From IMG/VR virus record IMGVR_UViG_648276652_000022: 10,631 nt of DNA. One strand, written 5' to 3'. Made by a program: the position numbers and the translations under genes. Source of the DNA: a virus. Taxonomy: Duplodnaviria > Heunggongvirae > Uroviricota > Caudoviricetes. Of this stretch, positions 1,459 through 9,138 are shown in pieces. The notes under the pieces are model-generated. The model saw nothing but the letters and a program-made list of their open reading frames with translations. It was not told where the DNA came from and ran no database searches. The first letter of the stretch is position 1, and each line of letters starts with the position of its first letter.

Positions 1459-2622
1459 TTACACATCATTAGTACCTTCCTTATTTTTTGACTGGGACAA
1501 ATTTGGGACCGATGGGTTCAGGATCGAGTCTATTTGCCGTGCGTGTTCGGTAAGGTGATTAGGTGCAAGGTGAGCATATCGACGAACCATTTCGATAGAC
1601 TCCCAGCCTCCCATTTCCTGTAACACTGACAACGGGACTCCGGCTTGAACCAGCCAACTTGCCCAGGTGTGTCTCAAGTCGTGAAATCTGAAATCATCAA
1701 TACCAGCCCGTCTCAGCGCCGCTTTCCAGGCTGTGTTTGCGTCATACCGCATCTTCCTTACTGTTGGCGCTTTCGTTCCGTCTGGTTTGGTACAGCTTTC
1801 CTTGTACACAAATACCCAACGGTGATGATTCCCGATTTGTTTTTTCAATACGCGACATGCAGTATCATTCAGCGCAACGCCAATTGCGCGGTTTGATTTA
1901 CTCTCTTCCGGGTTTATCCATGCCACCCGGCGCTGCATATCTATTTGTTGCCATTCAAGGTTGATGATGTTCGAGCGTCTTAAGCCTGTTGCCAGTGCAA
2001 ATTCAACAACAGACTTTAATGGCTCCGGACATTCATCAATCAGCCTTTGTGCTTCATGGGGCTCCAGCCAGCGGATCCGTTTATTCTTTGGTTGAGGCAC
2101 TTTAATAATTGGTGCCTTATCCAGCATTTTCCATTCACGCTCTGCGGCTCTTAGTAGGGCCTTTATAAATGAAAGATGCGTAGCCTTCGTTGCAACGGAC
2201 GCTGGTTTTGGCGTGTATTCTGGAACAGGTTTCCCTTTTTTTCTGCATGCTTCTGCCCTGAGTTTCCAGTTTTCCTCATGACGCCGGTTCGTCATTTTCT
2301 GCATTGCTGAATAAATTTTTGATTCAGTAATGTCTCTTAGTTGCATTCCTGCGAAATGTTGAAGCCAGAATCCGATCCGGCTTTTGTCATCGTCCAGTGA
2401 TTTTTTATGTGCTTTCTCTTCAAGCCACCTGACACACGCTTCCTCGAACGTTATATCAGGTATTTCACCAAGTTTGCTGACCCGCCATGCTTCAGCCTTT
2501 AGCTTGTCATGGAGTTCTGTCGCCTGCCTTTTGTCCTTTGTTCCAAGAGACTGTTTAAATCTTTTACCGTTCGGCAATGTGAAACTGGCGTACCATATTT
2601 CACCTCTGCGGAAGAGTGACAT
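1459..2622 (-). CDS. int: Tyrosine site-specific integrase, P22-type, 387 aa
   Basis: 387-aa ORF beginning [14 protein letters not shown], recognised as near-identical in length and sequence to phage P22 Int; C-terminal catalytic region with R...HDLRHT...Y motifs. Reads toward the tRNA, 14 bp from its 3' end, as expected for an att-adjacent int. Confidence 0.95.
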
Positions 2623-3154: not shown

Positions 3155-3516
3155 TATGCTCCAGCCTCCGGTGCTTTTGGCATTACTGCCCAGTGAGTGA
3201 TATTGACGTTTTCAAGGTCCCCGACCTGAAATGTCCACTGCCATTCTCCGGTTTCTTTTTGTCCCCAGGTGTACCAGAGAGAACGCCAGCCAATTAGCCA
3301 GCCTTCTCCGTTAGCATCGAATAACAAAACACTTTCATTTGCTGGTGGCAGTTCAGTTGACACTGGTATTACTTTGTTTTCCTGTGCTGCACATTTAGCT
3401 TCAAGCGCATCGAATTTACGCACCAGGTATTCAGCATCTGTTTCATTTACTTTCAGATCTCGCGGTACACATCTCCCACGAAGAAACCCTTCCATTTCGA
3501 AAACATTCATGCGCAT
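3154..3516 (-). CDS. yfdS: Prophage protein, Trp-rich C-terminus (DUF551-like), 120 aa
   Basis: 120-aa ORF; size and position after yfdR match the CPS-53 yfdS gene; C-terminal GWLIGW...WYTW...W pattern. The alternative start at 3510 forms an ATGA overlap with the yfdR stop. Confidence 0.7.
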   Translation of the reverse strand: MRMNVFEMEGFLRGRCVPRDLKVNETDAEYLVRKFDALEAKCAAQENKVIPVSTELPPANESVLLFDANGEGWLIGWRSLWYTWGQKETGEWQWTFQVGDLENVNITHWAVMPKAPEAGA

Positions 3517-5060: not shown

Positions 5061-5423
5061 TTAACGACCTGCTGCGCGGAGTTTTCCGTCAGGTTCACCG
5101 GCAAGAGTCAGTAACTGTCCCTGGTCTTCCTGCAGAATAGTCAGGCGACCACCGCGATTGACATACATCGGCGTTTCGGTGGTGTCTTCTTCGGAAATTT
5201 TCCCGCGGTTAGTCGGGCGAACATATGAGAGTTTGTGTTTGATTTTCACACGGTTCTCATCAAATGGTTCGATTTCCAGGTTGAGTGAGACCTTACCTTT
5301 GGTTTTCGTGTTCATCACACCGGAAGCGACTTCACTGAGAACTGCGCCGATTTTGGTTTCAAATACGCCGCCGTCCAGCTCCCCGATAAATGCCTGCACA
5401 TCAGTACTGCGTTCGCTAGCCAT
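5061..5423 (-). CDS. yfdP: Prophage protein, 120 aa
   Basis: Listed ORF 5061..5741 is over-extended; the internal ATG at 5423 (MASERSTDVQAFIGELDGG...) is preceded by GAGGAG 7 nt upstream and gives 120 aa, matching YfdP. Confidence 0.8.
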   Translation of the reverse strand: MASERSTDVQAFIGELDGGVFETKIGAVLSEVASGVMNTKTKGKVSLNLEIEPFDENRVKIKHKLSYVRPTNRGKISEEDTTETPMYVNRGGRLTILQEDQGQLLTLAGEPDGKLRAAGR

Positions 5424-5471
5424 TTTGCTGCTCCTCATCATATCGACCCTGCAAGGCCGATTAGTTTCTCC

Positions 5472-5560
5472 ACAAAACAGAGAAGAACACCTGCGGTGGC
5501 AGCCGCCCGGATGGATTGGGTTATGAGCCCGTCGTCCGGTGATGCTCTTCTCTGTTTTGT
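5472..5560. repeat. 15-bp perfect inverted repeat (ACAAAACAGAGAAGA / TCTTCTCTGTTTTGT) flanking a 59-bp GC-rich spacer
   Basis: Arms at 5472-5486 and 5546-5560 are exact reverse complements (checked base by base). They sit in a ~470 bp region without a convincing ORF. Confidence 0.6.
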
Positions 5561-5824
5561 AAAAAGGACGGTACCAGCCGGAAGCAAGGGTACAAACTGG
5601 TACCTCCAGGACTACACACAGCATAAAGTTGTGGTGCCGGGTGCCTCCCGGTGCCTGGCGAAGGTTGCACACCAGACGGGTGGGTATCCACAGAAGGTCG
5701 ACTGTCAGCCTCAACCTTAACCCGCGTGCGCTGAGCCGCATTCACCACAACGCTAAGGATTCTCTCTGGTTAAAAATACTTAGCTGTTATGTGCCTGCTT
5801 TTAGCCACATCAGGCGAGGTGGAC

Positions 5825-5877
5825 CTGGTTATTCCCCAACAACAAGGATTCGGTTAATCTGGTTATCCCCAACAACG
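5825..5877 (+). repeat. Two ~19-bp direct repeats CTGGTTAT(T)CCCCAACAAC immediately upstream of the 144-aa ORF
   Basis: Copies at 5825-5844 and 5859-5877 differ by one T; further CTGGTTA / CGGTTAA copies at 5766-5772 and 5851-5857. Candidate regulator-binding sites or promoter elements. Confidence 0.5.
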
Positions 5878-5891
5878 CAAAAGGAAAAGAA

Positions 5892-6326
5892 ATGTCCGGT
5901 AATATCTACACGCTGTACAAATCCCACTGTGAAAATGTTGGAAAGTATCGGGGCATTGAAATCAGTGGGGTAGTGTCATCAGTCGAAATAAGCAAAGTGG
6001 AATCAAGGGCAACATTACTTACTCTTCTGGACCTTGTCTTACATGAGCACCGGAAGAAATTCGGCACTCCCTATAATCAGTTGAATGGGAAAAAGGCTCT
6101 GGTTCACCTTATTCTGATGAAGCATCACTGGATGCCAAAACAGATTAATGAGATGAAATTTGATGAACTTCTTCTTTCAATTCAGGATGAACTCACACTT
6201 GATAAAATAAGCGTAACCGCCCAGAAATTTTTAGATTATCGAGACTGGAGATCACAAATTCATCACTTTGATGATTTTGACGAAAATGAATGGGATCCTA
6301 ATTTGTCTGCACAATATCTAAAGTAA
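5892..6326 (+). CDS. Hypothetical protein, 144 aa, AT-rich moron-like gene on the opposite strand to the surrounding early-left genes
   Basis: ATG at 5892 with AAGGA 6 nt upstream; open for 144 codons; visibly lower GC than flanking genes (by eye roughly 40% versus about 50%); acidic C-terminus (HHFDDFDENEWDPN). No family recognised. Confidence 0.7.
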   Translation: MSGNIYTLYKSHCENVGKYRGIEISGVVSSVEISKVESRATLLTLLDLVLHEHRKKFGTPYNQLNGKKALVHLILMKHHWMPKQINEMKFDELLLSIQDELTLDKISVTAQKFLDYRDWRSQIHHFDDFDENEWDPNLSAQYLK

Positions 6327-6504
6327 CATCCTGTGATAAAACCGTGATTTCCTGATCCAGTTTTTTTAAGGAGTCTATTGTTTCCTGTCGATAAGACAGC
6401 ACTTCACGAAGCTGGTTTATAGCTGCCAGCTTCTTTGCCATCCACTCGTAAATTTCCTCATTTGTGTATCCGGGCGCGACGATTTTGGGTTCTGTTTTGT
6501 GCAT
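6298..6504 (-). CDS. Hypothetical small protein, 68 aa, first gene downstream of pL
   Basis: The listed 73-aa ORF starts at TTG (6519), but TTGAGGAGG is better read as the Shine-Dalgarno GAGGAGG, 6 nt upstream of the ATG at 6504 (MHKTEPKIVAPGYTNEEIYEWMAKKLAAINQLREV...). Heptad-like, probably helical. Its 3' end overlaps the 144-aa ORF convergently by 29 bp. Confidence 0.65.
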   Translation of the reverse strand: MHKTEPKIVAPGYTNEEIYEWMAKKLAAINQLREVLSYRQETIDSLKKLDQEITVLSQDVTLDIVQTN

Positions 6505-6549
6505 TTCACACCTCCTCAAGTTATCAGTTACTTGTTGATGGGGACCAGA

Positions 6550-6561
6550 TTGTTAAAGAGC
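6550..6561 (-). promoter_or_regulatory. boxA-like antitermination element (GCTCTTTAACAA) in the pL leader
   Basis: Minus-strand reading of 6561..6550 is GCTCTTTAACAA, matching the E. coli rrn boxA consensus TGCTCTTTAACAA at 12 of 12 shared positions. A stem-loop lies 3 nt 5' of it on the same RNA, the rrn-style boxB-boxA order. Confidence 0.45.
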
Positions 6562-6562
6562 T

Positions 6563-6586
6563 AAGCGTCCTGTAGGGCGCTTTTTT
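6563..6586 (+). terminator. Rho-independent terminator on the + strand (GCGTCC-TGTA-GGGCGC followed by TTTTTT)
   Basis: 6-bp stem (one G-U pair) at 6565-6570 / 6575-6580, then a T-run at 6581-6586. The same hairpin on the minus-strand RNA is the structure upstream of the boxA-like element. Confidence 0.55.
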
Positions 6587-6671
6587 GTTGCTAACGAATC
6601 ACCCTAGACTTTATATGCCCCAGGCGGCTACTTCGTGGGCGTCCTGCCTGTTCGTTGTTTCTCTTGGGTAC

Positions 6672-6699
6672 ATTATGTATCTCATGGGTACATTGTCAA
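6672..6699 (-). promoter_or_regulatory. Leftward early promoter pL (TTGACA-16 bp-CATAAT) with embedded operator TGTACCCATGAGATACA
   Basis: On the minus strand: consensus -35 TTGACA (plus 6694-6699), 16-bp spacer, -10 CATAAT (plus 6672-6677). The 17-mer at 6676-6692 fits the T-GTAY-N7-GTAC-A dyad pattern also found at OR. Confidence 0.55.
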
Positions 6700-6700
6700 G

Positions 6701-6726
6701 TATAAAAAAACCTGCCGAAGCAGGTT
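6701..6726 (-). terminator. Rho-independent terminator downstream of the repressor gene (UUCG-loop hairpin followed by U-run)
   Basis: Minus-strand RNA: AACCUGC-UUCG-GCAGGUU followed by a run of U (plus-strand A-run 6704-6710), beginning 12 nt after the cI stop. Confidence 0.55.
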
Positions 6727-6738
6727 CATAAACATTGA

Positions 6739-7413
6739 TTAGGCTTTGATTTTGTATCTTCTTGGTTTTCCTGAGAAAATCACAGTTCCAATTATAGAGC
6801 AATTACCGTTGATCTTAATGTAAGGCTCAGGCCAGTTTGGGTTTAACGCTTTGAGATAACGCTGTGTCCCATCTTCTATCAACCTTTTGAAGGTGGTTTC
6901 ACCTGTATCGTGCATCAATGCAATAACGTCGTCACCGTGGCAGGCTGGTACTTCAGGATCGACAAAAATCATGTCTCCCGGGCGGTACTCATCAATCATT
7001 GAATCACCTATCACCCGCAAGATATAAGTCATTTCCCCACAGGGTACAGGGCAGGGATACGTTTCTGCTGTGCTCAAATCAACCTCAGAATATCCAACTT
7101 CTTTCCATGCTCCGGCCTGTACCCATGATATGACAGGGACTAATGTGATTTGTTTATTAGTGATTGAAACATCAGGTTTTTTTGTGATGTTCGTTGTCTG
7201 GTGTTCTTGATCGAGCCATCCAACAGGCAGGTCGAAACATTTTTCGATGTGTCGTGCCATGCTGTCACCGATATTTTTAGTAGCACCATCTCCCATAAAC
7301 CTGCTGGTCTGGGTTGGCTCGCGATCAATCATAGTGGCAAAGGAAGAATTCCCGCCAACACCATCTCTCAGTTTTCTGGCGTTAGACCGCCGGATGTCAT
7401 GGATTGTTTTCAT
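6739..7413 (-). CDS. CI-like prophage repressor (N-terminal HTH plus C-terminal S24 LexA-type peptidase domain), 224 aa
   Basis: 224-aa ORF with a GDSM serine motif and downstream KRL lysine typical of S24 autopeptidases; divergent from a Cro-like gene across an operator-bearing intergenic region. Appears leaderless (the -10-like TTTAAT lies directly upstream of the ATG). Confidence 0.88.
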   Translation of the reverse strand: MKTIHDIRRSNARKLRDGVGGNSSFATMIDREPTQTSRFMGDGATKNIGDSMARHIEKCFDLPVGWLDQEHQTTNITKKPDVSITNKQITLVPVISWVQAGAWKEVGYSEVDLSTAETYPCPVPCGEMTYILRVIGDSMIDEYRPGDMIFVDPEVPACHGDDVIALMHDTGETTFKRLIEDGTQRYLKALNPNWPEPYIKINGNCSIIGTVIFSGKPRRYKIKA

Positions 7414-7453: not shown

Positions 7454-7497
7454 TTGAAGGTTCATTTTAATCATGTAATATGTACACCGGAGGTACA
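7454..7497 (+). promoter_or_regulatory. Rightward early promoter PR (TTGAAG-16 bp-TAATAT) with operator OR-b TGTACACCGGAGGTACA at 7481-7497
   Basis: -35 at 7454-7459, -10 at 7476-7481; the 17-bp dyad, with the same GTAC spacing as OR-a, overlaps the -10 and start region. Confidence 0.55.
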
Positions 7498-7503
7498 TAT
7501 TGT

Positions 7504-7704
7504 ATGAAAGCGTATTGGGACTCTTTAACCAAAGAACAGCAGGGCGAGTTGGCCGGAAAAGTTGGCTCAACACCTGGCTACTTACGGCTGGTTTTCAATG
7601 GCTATAAAAAAGCCAGTTTTGTGCTGGCTAAAAAACTTGAGCAATGCACGTCAGGTGCAATTACGAAATCTGACTTAAGACCGGATATCTATCCGAAAGA
7701 TTAG
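7504..7704 (+). CDS. Cro-like / YdaS-family HTH regulator, 66 aa
   Basis: Listed ORF starts at 7480, but GGAGG at 7488-7492 precedes the ATG at 7504 (MKAYWDSLTKEQQGELAGKVGSTPGYLRLV...). Small HTH-like protein divergent from cI, with a C-terminal LRPDI motif as in YdaS-type proteins. Confidence 0.7.
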   Translation: MKAYWDSLTKEQQGELAGKVGSTPGYLRLVFNGYKKASFVLAKKLEQCTSGAITKSDLRPDIYPKD

Positions 7705-7735: not shown

Positions 7736-8305
7736 ATGAGGCTAACCGTGGGTAAGCATCACTGGAAAGTAGAAAAACAGCCTGAGTGGTACGTGAAAGC
7801 TGTCAGAAAAACTATCGCAAAGTTGCCGGGTGGTTACGCTGAAGCAGCTGACTGGCTGGATGTAACAGAGAACGCATTATTTAACCGCCTTCGTGCCGAT
7901 GGCGATCAGATTTTCCCGCTGGGATGGGCAATGATTTTGCAACGTGCTGGTGGAACTCACTTCATTGCTGACGCTGTGGCGCAGTCTGCAAATGGCGTCT
8001 TTGTGTCTCTTCCTGACGTCGAGGATGTGGACAACGCCGATATTAACCAGCGTCTGCTGGAAGTCATTGAACAGATCGGCAGTTATTCAAAACAGATTCG
8101 TTCAGCAATCGAAGACGGTGTAGTGGAACCGCATGAGAAGACAGCAATTAACGACGAGCTGTATCTCTCAATTTCGAAGCTGCAGGAGCATGCAGCACTG
8201 GTCTACAAAATCTTTTGCATTTCAGAAAGTAATGACGCCCGCGAGTGTGCAGCTCCGGGCGTCGTGGCGTCGATTGCTTCTGGTTGTGGAGAAACTAACG
8301 CATGA
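7736..8305 (+). CDS. Prophage regulatory protein, CII-like (CP76/YdaT-like family), 189 aa
   Basis: 189-aa ORF directly after the Cro-like gene. Family assignment is from recognition only. No Shine-Dalgarno before the ATG at 7736; the GTG at 7748 with GAGG 6 nt upstream is an alternative start. Confidence 0.55.
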   Translation: MRLTVGKHHWKVEKQPEWYVKAVRKTIAKLPGGYAEAADWLDVTENALFNRLRADGDQIFPLGWAMILQRAGGTHFIADAVAQSANGVFVSLPDVEDVDNADINQRLLEVIEQIGSYSKQIRSAIEDGVVEPHEKTAINDELYLSISKLQEHAALVYKIFCISESNDARECAAPGVVASIASGCGETNA

Positions 8306-9138
8306 ACAGTTTAACGGCAAATAACCGTTTGTCGCAACAGCTGGTGGTCAGCGTCGCTGAACACGTGTTGTTACGGCATGAATGCAGATTACCAAATCTC
8401 CTGGCTGTAAGTAACCACAGAGAACTTTACCTGACTGTGGGGGGCGAGTTGTGCAGGAACTTAACCGCTGGTTTCGTGACGGAAGAGGACTTTATGTTCA
8501 TGTTATTCGTTGGGAGCCAGAAACACAGCGCGTTATCTATCTTCGCAAAGACTACCCGCATGAGTGCTTTAGCCCTTTGTGGAAATTCAGGCGTGATTTT
8601 GTTGAGTGTGAAGGACCACCAGCACATTGATTCTGCCATTCCGGGACGTTACACTGTTCAGGCACCTTATAAAGCGGGTGCCGGGATTGGCGTCCTGGAA
8701 TTGATCAAGGCGATATATGACGCGCCAGCGTCTTTTTTATCGTCCGCATTTGCTCACATCAAAGTTATGGTGGGCTGGGCGGGGGCATCGAAAGATGCGC
8801 CGGTTTCCTTGATCACCGGTTACGCCAACCCCGTTCAGTTCACCACCAGCGAAATTGGCGTTTCCGGTGGTGGAAGTATTTCACCGATCAAGGAGGCTGC
8901 CATCATGGCTACTGTCCCAGCCCTCACTCGTCTGAATGATGAAGACTTACATAAACTCAGTTATGTAACAACTGCACTACGTGCTCTGCGCAAGGTAACT
9001 CTTTCGGATCCGCAGGCACATCAGGTTCTGGTAGAAACCCTTCTTAACTTGCAAGCTGAACGTATTCGTCTGGCGGATAAGGCTAATTTTCATATTCACC
9101 GTCTCCTGAATATCAGCGGAGGGCATCGTCATGCTTAA
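8302..9138 (+). CDS. Hypothetical protein (278-aa frame); the 5' part may be over-called, the 3' part (about 8631-9138) looks like genuine coding
   Basis: Continuous 278-codon frame with an ATGA overlap to the upstream gene. From about 8631 the codons look like typical E. coli coding sequence (GCG, GGC, GAA, ATC, AAA). An internal ATG at 8905 is preceded by AAGGAGG 8 nt upstream. Conflicts with a well-formed small ORF in another frame (8451-8630). Confidence 0.35.
   Translation: MNSLTANNRLSQQLVVSVAEHVLLRHECRLPNLLAVSNHRELYLTVGGELCRNLTAGFVTEEDFMFMLFVGSQKHSALSIFAKTTRMSALALCGNSGVILLSVKDHQHIDSAIPGRYTVQAPYKAGAGIGVLELIKAIYDAPASFLSSAFAHIKVMVGWAGASKDAPVSLITGYANPVQFTTSEIGVSGGGSISPIKEAAIMATVPALTRLNDEDLHKLSYVTTALRALRKVTLSDPQAHQVLVETLLNLQAERIRLADKANFHIHRLLNISGGHRHA
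8451..8630 (+). CDS. Small phage protein, DUF4222-like pattern, 59 aa, GTG start, in a different frame from the 278-aa ORF
   Basis: Hand translation: VQELNRWFRDGRGLYVHVIRWEPETQRVIYLRKDYPHECFSPLWKFRRDFVECEGPPAH, stop TGA at 8628-8630. It fits the small phage-protein pattern D.RG..V.V......RV.Y.R..Y..EC..P...F...F as I recall it. Absent from the ORF track (under 60 aa, GTG start). Confidence 0.4.
   Translation: MQELNRWFRDGRGLYVHVIRWEPETQRVIYLRKDYPHECFSPLWKFRRDFVECEGPPAH

Follow-up and report, generated by a model that had tools for sequence, protein, structure and literature searches.

Excludons, first described in Listeria, are neighbouring convergent or divergent genes whose transcripts overlap. 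In phages lambda and P22, the OOP/cII and sar/ant systems use dedicated small RNAs of 69-77 nt that are made from their own promoters. Coliphages 186 and P2 have lytic and lysogenic promoters that lie face to face and are subject to transcriptional interference; in 186 the two promoters, separated by 62 bp, govern the repressor itself. Prophages also carry morons, which are accessory genes with their own promoter and terminator. Antitermination by boxA and Nus factors is known from rrn operons and from the nut sites of lambda and P22, and boxA has reportedly also been found upstream of CRISPR arrays in an eLife study of 2020. Here we describe a locus that can be compared with each of these systems, a tail-to-tail pair of genes for proteins of 144 and 68 amino acids (aa) beside the immunity region of a lambdoid prophage. 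The pair lies in a stretch of 10,631 nucleotides from the IMG/VR virus record IMGVR_UViG_648276652_000022 (Caudoviricetes), and this whole stretch is referred to as the window. The arrangement belongs to a known class, that of convergent, antisense-capable gene pairs. Taken as a whole, the locus is best explained, and here we lean modestly in favour, as a conserved convergent cassette in a cargo slot on the pL side, with an antisense-capable either/or between the lysogenic and the lytic state.

The 144-aa open reading frame (ORF) is oriented against the pL operon, and the 68-aa ORF would be the first gene of the pL transcript. An initial annotation had proposed that the two genes overlap convergently by 29 bp, that a plus-strand terminator lies beyond the start of the 68-aa gene, and that a plus-strand transcript would be antisense to all of that gene including its ribosome-binding site (RBS). 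The ORF coordinates bear out the overlap. The minus-strand ORF spans 6519-6298 and gives 73 aa when read from a TTG, and the ATG at 6504-6502 gives 68 aa. The RBS is also found, as a Shine-Dalgarno sequence (GAGGAGG) at 6517-6511 preceding this ATG. The terminator stem (6563-6582) does lie past the start codon at 6504, and the terminator stands about 60-85 nt beyond it. No other plus-strand terminator-like site was listed in the terminator scan between 6326 and 6563. Because there is no canonical plus-strand terminator between the 144-aa stop and the hairpin, a plus-strand transcript would cover the whole 68-aa gene including its RBS, as had been proposed. The end of this transcript is predicted at about 6586-6589, which would give a 3' untranslated region (3'UTR) of about 260 nt after the 144-aa stop and leave roughly 77 bp up to where pL starts. 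The layout was identical in all close relatives (82/82). The record of Shigella phage SfIV, a close relative, has no annotation of the 68-aa gene.

The predicted layout, in which the 3'UTR of an mRNA provides the antisense RNA, resembles an excludon and not a small RNA of the OOP or sar kind. As in excludons, the genes are convergent, the long 3'UTR of one predicted mRNA is antisense to the neighbour, and interference together with duplex-dependent decay would be expected to lead to either/or expression. Unlike the excludons, the opposing unit here would be the main lytic phage promoter with its own antitermination signals; conservation across many lineages, as seen for the window pair, is no defining excludon trait. 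With OOP and sar the locus would share antisense RNA control of a phage regulatory gene beside the immunity region, whereas here a protein-coding mRNA would supply the antisense RNA with its 3'UTR, and no promoter for a small RNA was found. The likeness to 186 and P2 lies in convergent units of opposite life-cycle states, of which the stronger lytic unit would suppress the weaker one by head-on collision. In contrast to 186 and P2, the overlap here would be several hundred bp, the genes are accessory, and a terminator would shield the lytic promoter from the opposing unit. The variable slot, the dedicated terminator, the independent orientation and the exchange among phages with different immunity regions are moron-like, but no promoter was found here, the slot borders are conserved on both sides, and the cassette consists of two genes on opposite strands. 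The features are listed in Table 1.

Table 1. Positions of the convergent pair, its surroundings and the neighbouring genes in the window.
Feature	Position	Strand	Remarks
proA	1-1254
tRNA-Thr	1369-1441
P22-type integrase gene	1459-2622	-	in the lambdoid prophage that fills the remainder of the window
Left slot border	5793-5876	+	CA-rich block of about 85 bp, conserved
144-aa ORF	5892-6326	+	ECs1072 family
Convergent coding overlap	6298-6326	both	29 bp
68-aa ORF	6504-6298	-	YdfC family
U7 run	6361-6367	+	without adequate preceding stem; where late-region relatives carry an embedded + terminator
Perfect 9-bp inverted repeat in the 68-aa gene	6408-6435	both	dG -15.6 kcal/mol, z -3.9, tail UUUGCC
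Predicted boxA GCTCTTTAACAA in the pL leader RNA	6550-6561 (read 6561-6550)	-	exact match
Predicted intrinsic terminator of + strand (cargo) transcription	6563-6589	+	stem AAGCGTCC/GGGCGCTT, loop TGTA, T6
5' leader element of the pL transcript	6595-6654	-	CGAACAGGCAGGACGCC...CCAGGAUGAUUCG; about 60 nt, conserved
CI operators (predicted)	6655-6693	-	overlap pL
pL (predicted)	6672-6699	-	TTGACA (6699-6694)-16-CATAAT (6677-6672), 11/12 matches
Predicted cI transcript terminator	6708-6727	-	T-run on - strand only; equivalent site annotated as terminator in SfV
CI-like repressor gene	6739-7413	-	with S24 peptidase domain
Cro-like gene	7480-7704	+
CII-like CP76 protein gene	7736-8305

The plus-strand hairpin was the top-ranked terminator-like site in the window, which contains 25 such sites versus 10.4 +/- 2.8 in shuffled sequences. 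Its stem has 8 pairs, 5 of them G-C, and is followed by TTTTGTT, with the T-run at 6581-6586. The fold energy was -11.5 kcal/mol as plus-strand RNA versus -7.5 as minus-strand RNA, and stem position 6 is U.G on the plus strand and C.A on the minus strand. The hairpin is part of a module of about 40 bp (6550-6589), in which a minus-strand boxA is fused back-to-back with the plus-strand terminator. An exact-pattern scan of viral contigs with the left flank of the hairpin gave over 120 loci. Together with the other loci examined, these comprised 27 distinct variants of the module, 24 of which have a T-run. All of these 24 fold more stably as plus-strand RNA (-5.9 to -13.0) than as minus-strand RNA (-2.9 to -9.3). 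The loops are hypervariable, with at least 12 different sequences, and a T-run of 4-8 is kept throughout the 24. In a formal count of 17 distinct variants, U.G occupies stem position 6 in 15, and all pair-preserving changes on a single side of the stem (4/4) keep a standard or wobble pair on the plus strand only; three of these turn G-C or C-G into a G.U wobble, and one turns a U.G wobble into C-G. A C>T change in the stem of an Escherichia albertii relative likewise gives G.U on the plus strand only. The evidence is thus of the type of a conserved stem, a variable loop and strand asymmetry, and not classical covariation. With a G+C-rich stem in the range of 5-10 bp, a short loop and a U-tract, in a structure that is conserved and strand-specific, we predict the hairpin to be a genuine, strand-specific intrinsic terminator of the plus strand.

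The other half of the module reads on the opposite strand. A boxA consensus match is found in the predicted nascent RNA downstream of a promoter, about 105 nt from the pL start. The sequence GCTCTTTAACAA is identical at 12/13 positions to the E. coli rrn boxA, UGCUCUUUAACAA. Every variant has its exact complement, TTGTTAAAGAGC, unchanged as the left half of the module, and three variants have the boxA without the hairpin. Homology to other phages begins and ends sharply at the unit of boxA, hairpin and T-run, and phages of E. coli, E. albertii and Klebsiella carry the module next to many different neighbours. These observations point to a two-strand unit, in which boxA belongs to the leftward pL RNA and the terminator to the rightward RNA. 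A second boxA-like site in cro (7520-7531) has 2 mismatches, is within chance expectation and was set aside.

The comparison of phages identifies the region directly downstream of pL as a variable cargo slot, with the module as its right border. Seven unrelated cargo families could be distinguished in the slot, all in plus orientation. The plus-strand gene stops 2-28 bp ahead of the module in 5/7 of these families; a minus-strand gene stands between the plus-strand gene and the module in the other two, the present one and that of locus L143. In PhiR29_1 of E. coli and Kp4882-1 of Klebsiella, for example, a single plus-strand gene ends 18-25 bp before the module, with no minus-strand gene between. 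The terminator therefore belongs to the cargo slot and was not placed specifically for the 68-aa gene. In the left border of the slot, which directly precedes the RBS of each cargo, a 19-bp direct repeat, CTGGTTAT(T)CCCCAACAAC, occurs twice at a spacing of 33 bp. In an alignment of 11 slot variants from E. coli and Klebsiella phages this border is nearly invariant, with divergence right after it. As plus-strand RNA it has less structure than any of 200 shuffles (z +2.4). The left border is probably an unstructured, CA-rich 5'UTR; enhancement of translation, a rut-like activity or the binding of a protein are possible roles. SfIV_35, whose equivalent in the window runs across this border (5629-5973, plus strand), is probably no gene.

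Is the pairing of the two genes itself conserved? Among viral contigs, the 68-aa gene has 80 relatives, none of them below 97% identity and hence uninformative on linkage, and relatives at 28-72% identity were used instead. Linkage was examined in 12 lineages of distant homologues of the 144-aa protein, a member of the ECs1072 family; identities are to the window protein. A YdfC-family ORF, convergent to the ECs1072 gene and overlapping its 3' end, was present in 10/12 lineages, down to 28% identity. The pair was found in E. albertii L213 (72%), in L112 (about 37% for both genes), in L214 (38%), in Salmonella phage ST64B (32%, where the partner is Sb50), in L217 (31%), in L215/216 (30%), in the Klebsiella phages L220/221 (29-30%), and, at 28% each, in L218/219, L222/223 and L226. 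The YdfC-like partner was absent in L212 and not significant in L224/225. L112 again has an overlap of 29 bp and, past the pair, the boxA/terminator module of the window; in the lineages other than the window and L112 the overlap is roughly 55 to 200 nt. Where flanking genes could be read, the pair is found at one of two positions, beside the immunity repressor on the pL side or between a Q-type antiterminator and holin; the pair of L218/219 adjoins an antiterminator-family gene. A minus-strand terminator resembling tR' lies upstream of the YdfC-like ORF, directly in L220 and at about 360 nt in L222. The prophage of L214 also carries a CsrA homologue (PF02599; L214 2-169, minus strand) in its early-left operon.

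The retention of a convergent 3' overlap in 10/12 lineages argues for a built-in arrangement and against chance juxtaposition. The recurrence of this pairing among many phages that are only distantly related makes it a probable built-in switch between dormancy and lytic growth. The lineages differ in what lies downstream of the ECs1072 stop. ST64B, L218, L220 and L222 have a good plus-strand terminator 20-50 nt past this stop, inside the YdfC-like ORF, and these embedded hairpins are similar to one another in sequence. L217 has no plus-strand site downstream of the stop until a weak one at 3177, and the weak plus-strand site of L214 lies beyond three minus-strand genes. The conserved feature of the pair thus appears to be the 3' overlap, with full antisense coverage a property of the pL-slot lineage. 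The built-in mutual antisense arrangement seen by the initial annotation is retained in part: the overlap belongs to the pair across lineages, whereas the terminator is a slot border and full coverage is lineage-specific.

The same slot holds convergent pairs that are non-homologous to the window pair in two other phages. In e14, ymfI and ymfJ are convergent with a 63-bp overlap (L089 1889-2476), and in SfV an unannotated 81-aa plus-strand ORF opposes orf33 with an 83-bp overlap (L002 3162-3621). Excludons of E. coli have been catalogued by ExcludonFinder, and ymfI-ymfJ is on the published list, where it counts as a convergent excludon in no fewer than half of 58 MG1655 RNA-seq data sets (PMC12288877). 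In the SOS response, ymfJ is induced late, with a log2 value of 4.8 (PMC11002266). These e14 data lend indirect support to the mechanism proposed below.

Upstream of the module lie the signals of the predicted pL transcript. Two operator-like copies of ATGTACCC... overlap pL, where 0.01 are expected by chance, and the operator half-site TGTAC recurs at pR. The leader element between pL and the module was found behind at least six unrelated pL/operator types, and is also present in e14, SfV, ST64B, mEp237, ZF40, and Yersinia, Pantoea and Klebsiella phages. One leader stem varies on both sides (CCUGG/CCAGG, CCGG/CCGG, CCCGG/CCGGG). No N homologue was found in the window. The leader element is a candidate cis-acting antiterminator RNA. 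It is like HK022 putL in lying right at the start of the pL RNA in a phage without an N homologue; both share the start ACGAAC and the octamer CAGGAUGA, and local alignment gave no significant similarity between the two. A place among the put-type RNAs, which have two stem-loops in about 70 nt at the start of the early transcript, is kept as a lead. As for boxA, about 875 nt of the pL RNA are untranslated between the 68-aa stop (6298) and the following gene, whose start near 5423 is taken from a 120-aa SfV homologue. A boxA in the leader of a transcript crossing this distance would be in the situation where boxA protects against Rho in known boxA systems. Unlike those systems, the locus has no N-like protein and no boxB with a conserved loop, the adjacent hairpin is a terminator of the opposite strand, and the boxA is a predicted one. 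A weak minus-strand terminator-like site (6223-6208) was dropped because it lacks conservation in the E. albertii relative.

These features suggest how the cassette might work. In the lysogen, CI would shut pL, and only the plus-strand transcript would be made. The terminator would stop this RNA about 77 bp before pL, so that the operators and cI are protected, and the long 3'UTR, complementary to the whole 68-aa mRNA, would mop up any leaky 68-aa mRNA. On induction, pL transcription would run head-on through the 144-aa gene and silence it by transcriptional interference and RNA duplex formation. Termination resistance would be needed here because the pL RNA is untranslated for such a distance after the 68-aa stop; boxA with Nus factors and the leader element would probably provide it and shield the RNA from Rho. 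The 68-aa protein would be the first lytic product.

Several observations weigh against this interpretation. CI repression alone already gives exclusivity between the lysogenic and the lytic state. As CI already represses pL, antisense control would add to mutual exclusion at most, and the statement of the initial annotation that antisense could make expression of the two genes mutually exclusive was an over-reading. The embedded plus-strand terminators of four lineages, together with the absence of the boxA/terminator module from the e14 and SfV slots, indicate that full antisense coverage is dispensable for such pairs, and the RNA-seq evidence from e14 concerns genes that are non-homologous to the window pair. 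No sigma-70-like plus-strand promoter was found in 5400-5895 at standard or relaxed thresholds, so transcription of the 144-aa gene is one that we can only infer. The terminator stem has no double compensatory substitution among the 17 distinct variants. The inverted repeat at 6408-6435, whose arms are unchanged in E. albertii, does not appear to be a canonical terminator and could be a pause or processing site; this hairpin and the U7 run could cause partial termination or processing of the plus-strand RNA. The position of the U7 run was equated with that of the embedded terminators by protein alignment (L218 KATLEERLK over window residues 39-47). Rho could also stop the untranslated plus-strand RNA before 6563. 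Finally, neither protein had a match in Pfam or, among known defence and toxin-antitoxin systems, in PADLOC, and structure searches gave no function for the 144-aa protein.

The alternatives differ in what they make of the terminator and of the plus-strand RNA. It could be that the terminator is an insulator only, which keeps cargo transcription away from the pL operators and the 3' end of cI. The distance between the 144-aa stop and the terminator would then be a by-product of a two-gene cassette between fixed borders, and the antisense coverage would have no regulatory consequence since CI silences pL. We regard this as rather unlikely. The terminator is a fixed border module directly after the plus-strand gene in five other cargo families, the other pair lineages with an embedded terminator overlap by only about 110-140 nt, and the convergent pairs of e14 and SfV lack such a terminator. 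An overlap kept in 10/12 lineages, to 28% identity and at two genomic positions is nevertheless hard to explain without selection on the arrangement or the partnership, and the window lineage has no embedded terminator although its relatives show that the ORF can encode one. If, on the other hand, the 144-aa gene were little transcribed from a promoter of its own in the lysogen, or if Rho ended the plus-strand RNA soon after 6326, the RBS of the 68-aa gene would never be reached. The missing plus-strand promoter, an untranslated 3'UTR of 236 nt, and the U7 run and strong hairpin on the way are in line with this. The conserved plus-strand terminator and the conserved RBS context for 7 cargo families, however, imply plus-strand transcription, and scanning the base composition of the 3'UTR for Rho (rut) sites gave no informative signal, with no marked C-over-G region (maximum C/G ratio 1.57). 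We consider this explanation quite improbable.

Two further proposals, both of which we hold to be very improbable, give the hairpin another partner. One is a dedicated antisense small RNA, started from a promoter inside the 68-aa gene, of about 150 nt and ending at the terminator, which would block the 68-aa RBS in the manner of sar/ant or oop/cII. The terminator lies at a suitable distance past the start codon to serve as the 3' end of such an RNA, and there is one weak promoter candidate, TTCACG-18-CAGCTT with an upstream TG and a start at 6403. This best plus-strand candidate reaches only 7/12 and no plus-strand site in 6300-6570 reaches 9/12; moreover, the same terminator directly follows the plus-strand ORF in slot variants without a minus-strand gene, so a small RNA is not needed to account for it. 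The likening of the locus to lambda oop and P22 sar in the initial annotation fails for want of such a dedicated promoter. The other proposal takes the hairpin mainly as a boxB-like partner of boxA in the leftward pL RNA, with the T-run incidental. A hairpin immediately 5' of boxA is the order found in rrn leaders, and hairpin and boxA travel together in most variants. Against this, the diversity of the loops is unlike that of a protein-binding boxB, every variant is weaker as minus-strand RNA, on which stem position 6 is C.A in 15/17 variants, the T-run is always kept, and boxA occurs without the hairpin in three variants. We therefore retain the antisense-capable cassette in a pL-side slot as our preferred explanation, with the reservations given above.

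What do the two proteins tell us? The 144-aa protein matches phrog_5286 and the NCBIfam entry NF033230 "ECs1072 family" (157.8 bits, cut-off 70), a family with 65 representative clusters. Its AlphaFold model is all-helical with a pLDDT of 93.5, and the structure searches returned no solved structural relative of the fold. The 68-aa protein matches phrog_1744 (E 4.8e-34). Against YdfC it shows 38-39% identity over residues 1-66 by tblastn (E 1e-8), and against the ydfC copies of Qin-like phages it scores 44-45 bits by phmmer, so that we assign it to the YdfC family. The ydfC gene of Qin-like phages is part of the early-left operon under DicA control and has no ECs1072 partner. YdfC is described as uncharacterised (PMC10448788). 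Because the pair recurs by the repressor or behind lytic promoters, the two proteins are probably functional antagonists, a lysogen-phase protein and a lytic-phase counter-factor.

Extending this, we put forward, tentatively and with some doubt, that ECs1072/YdfC could be a two-gene switch module that has so far gone undescribed in temperate enterobacterial phages. One gene would encode a lysogen protein, for example an exclusion or defence factor or a lytic brake. The other would encode a small antagonist as the first product of an antitermination-controlled lytic promoter, which would be pL here and the Q-dependent late promoter in ST64B and the Klebsiella phages. The tail-to-tail wiring would shut off the lysogen gene while the antagonist neutralises existing protein, and the pL version would be framed by the dual-strand element of boxA and terminator. 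What the present analysis adds to the initial annotation is the predicted two-strand slot border of boxA and terminator, and the apparently conserved convergent ECs1072/YdfC pair.

We assign the window as an SfIV-like lambdoid prophage at thrW. Window positions 5700-6760 are 99.8% identical to Shigella phage SfIV, and positions 5750-6700 are 100% identical to E. coli F9792. At least 80% of 5750-6700 was found in 405 of 5426 complete E. coli genomes. To the left of the slot, the 226-aa ORF at 5061-5741 (minus strand) is probably over-extended; its SfV homologue orf32 has 120 aa, which places the true start at about 5423. Between the yfdP-like gene and the cargo slot, about 360 bp (5430-5790) are non-coding and conserved, and contain a minus-strand hairpin with a T-run near 5560-5605. 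A match to STnc100 in Rfam at 5559-5781 (minus strand) was sub-threshold (38 bits versus a gathering score of 47) and was set aside; STnc100 usually occurs in the late region (bioRxiv 10.64898/2026.05.13.724894). The "Ash" ORF (8302-9138), to the right of the CII-like gene, contains matches to two Rfam families, isrK (64 bits; 8662-8738, plus strand) and C4 antisense RNA (82 bits; 8763-8850, plus strand), both of which exceed the gathering score, together with a weak c4-a1b1 target match at 8649-8701. Together, isrK, C4 and the c4-a1b1 target look like an antisense module of the P1/P7 immI type.

A cargo slot with conserved borders is useful for the annotation of prophages and for finding accessory genes that are expressed in the lysogen. 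If the proposed arrangement is true, the compact combination of boxA and an opposite-strand terminator would show how phages can carry an accessory gene of opposing direction right after their main early promoter, with the immunity region and the early transcript undisturbed. It would also provide a first handle on the ECs1072 and YdfC families, the latter named for a y-gene of the Qin prophage of K-12. The locus would then be a concrete and, as its presence in 405/5426 E. coli genomes indicates, widespread example of control by convergent transcription at the boundary between lysogeny and lysis.

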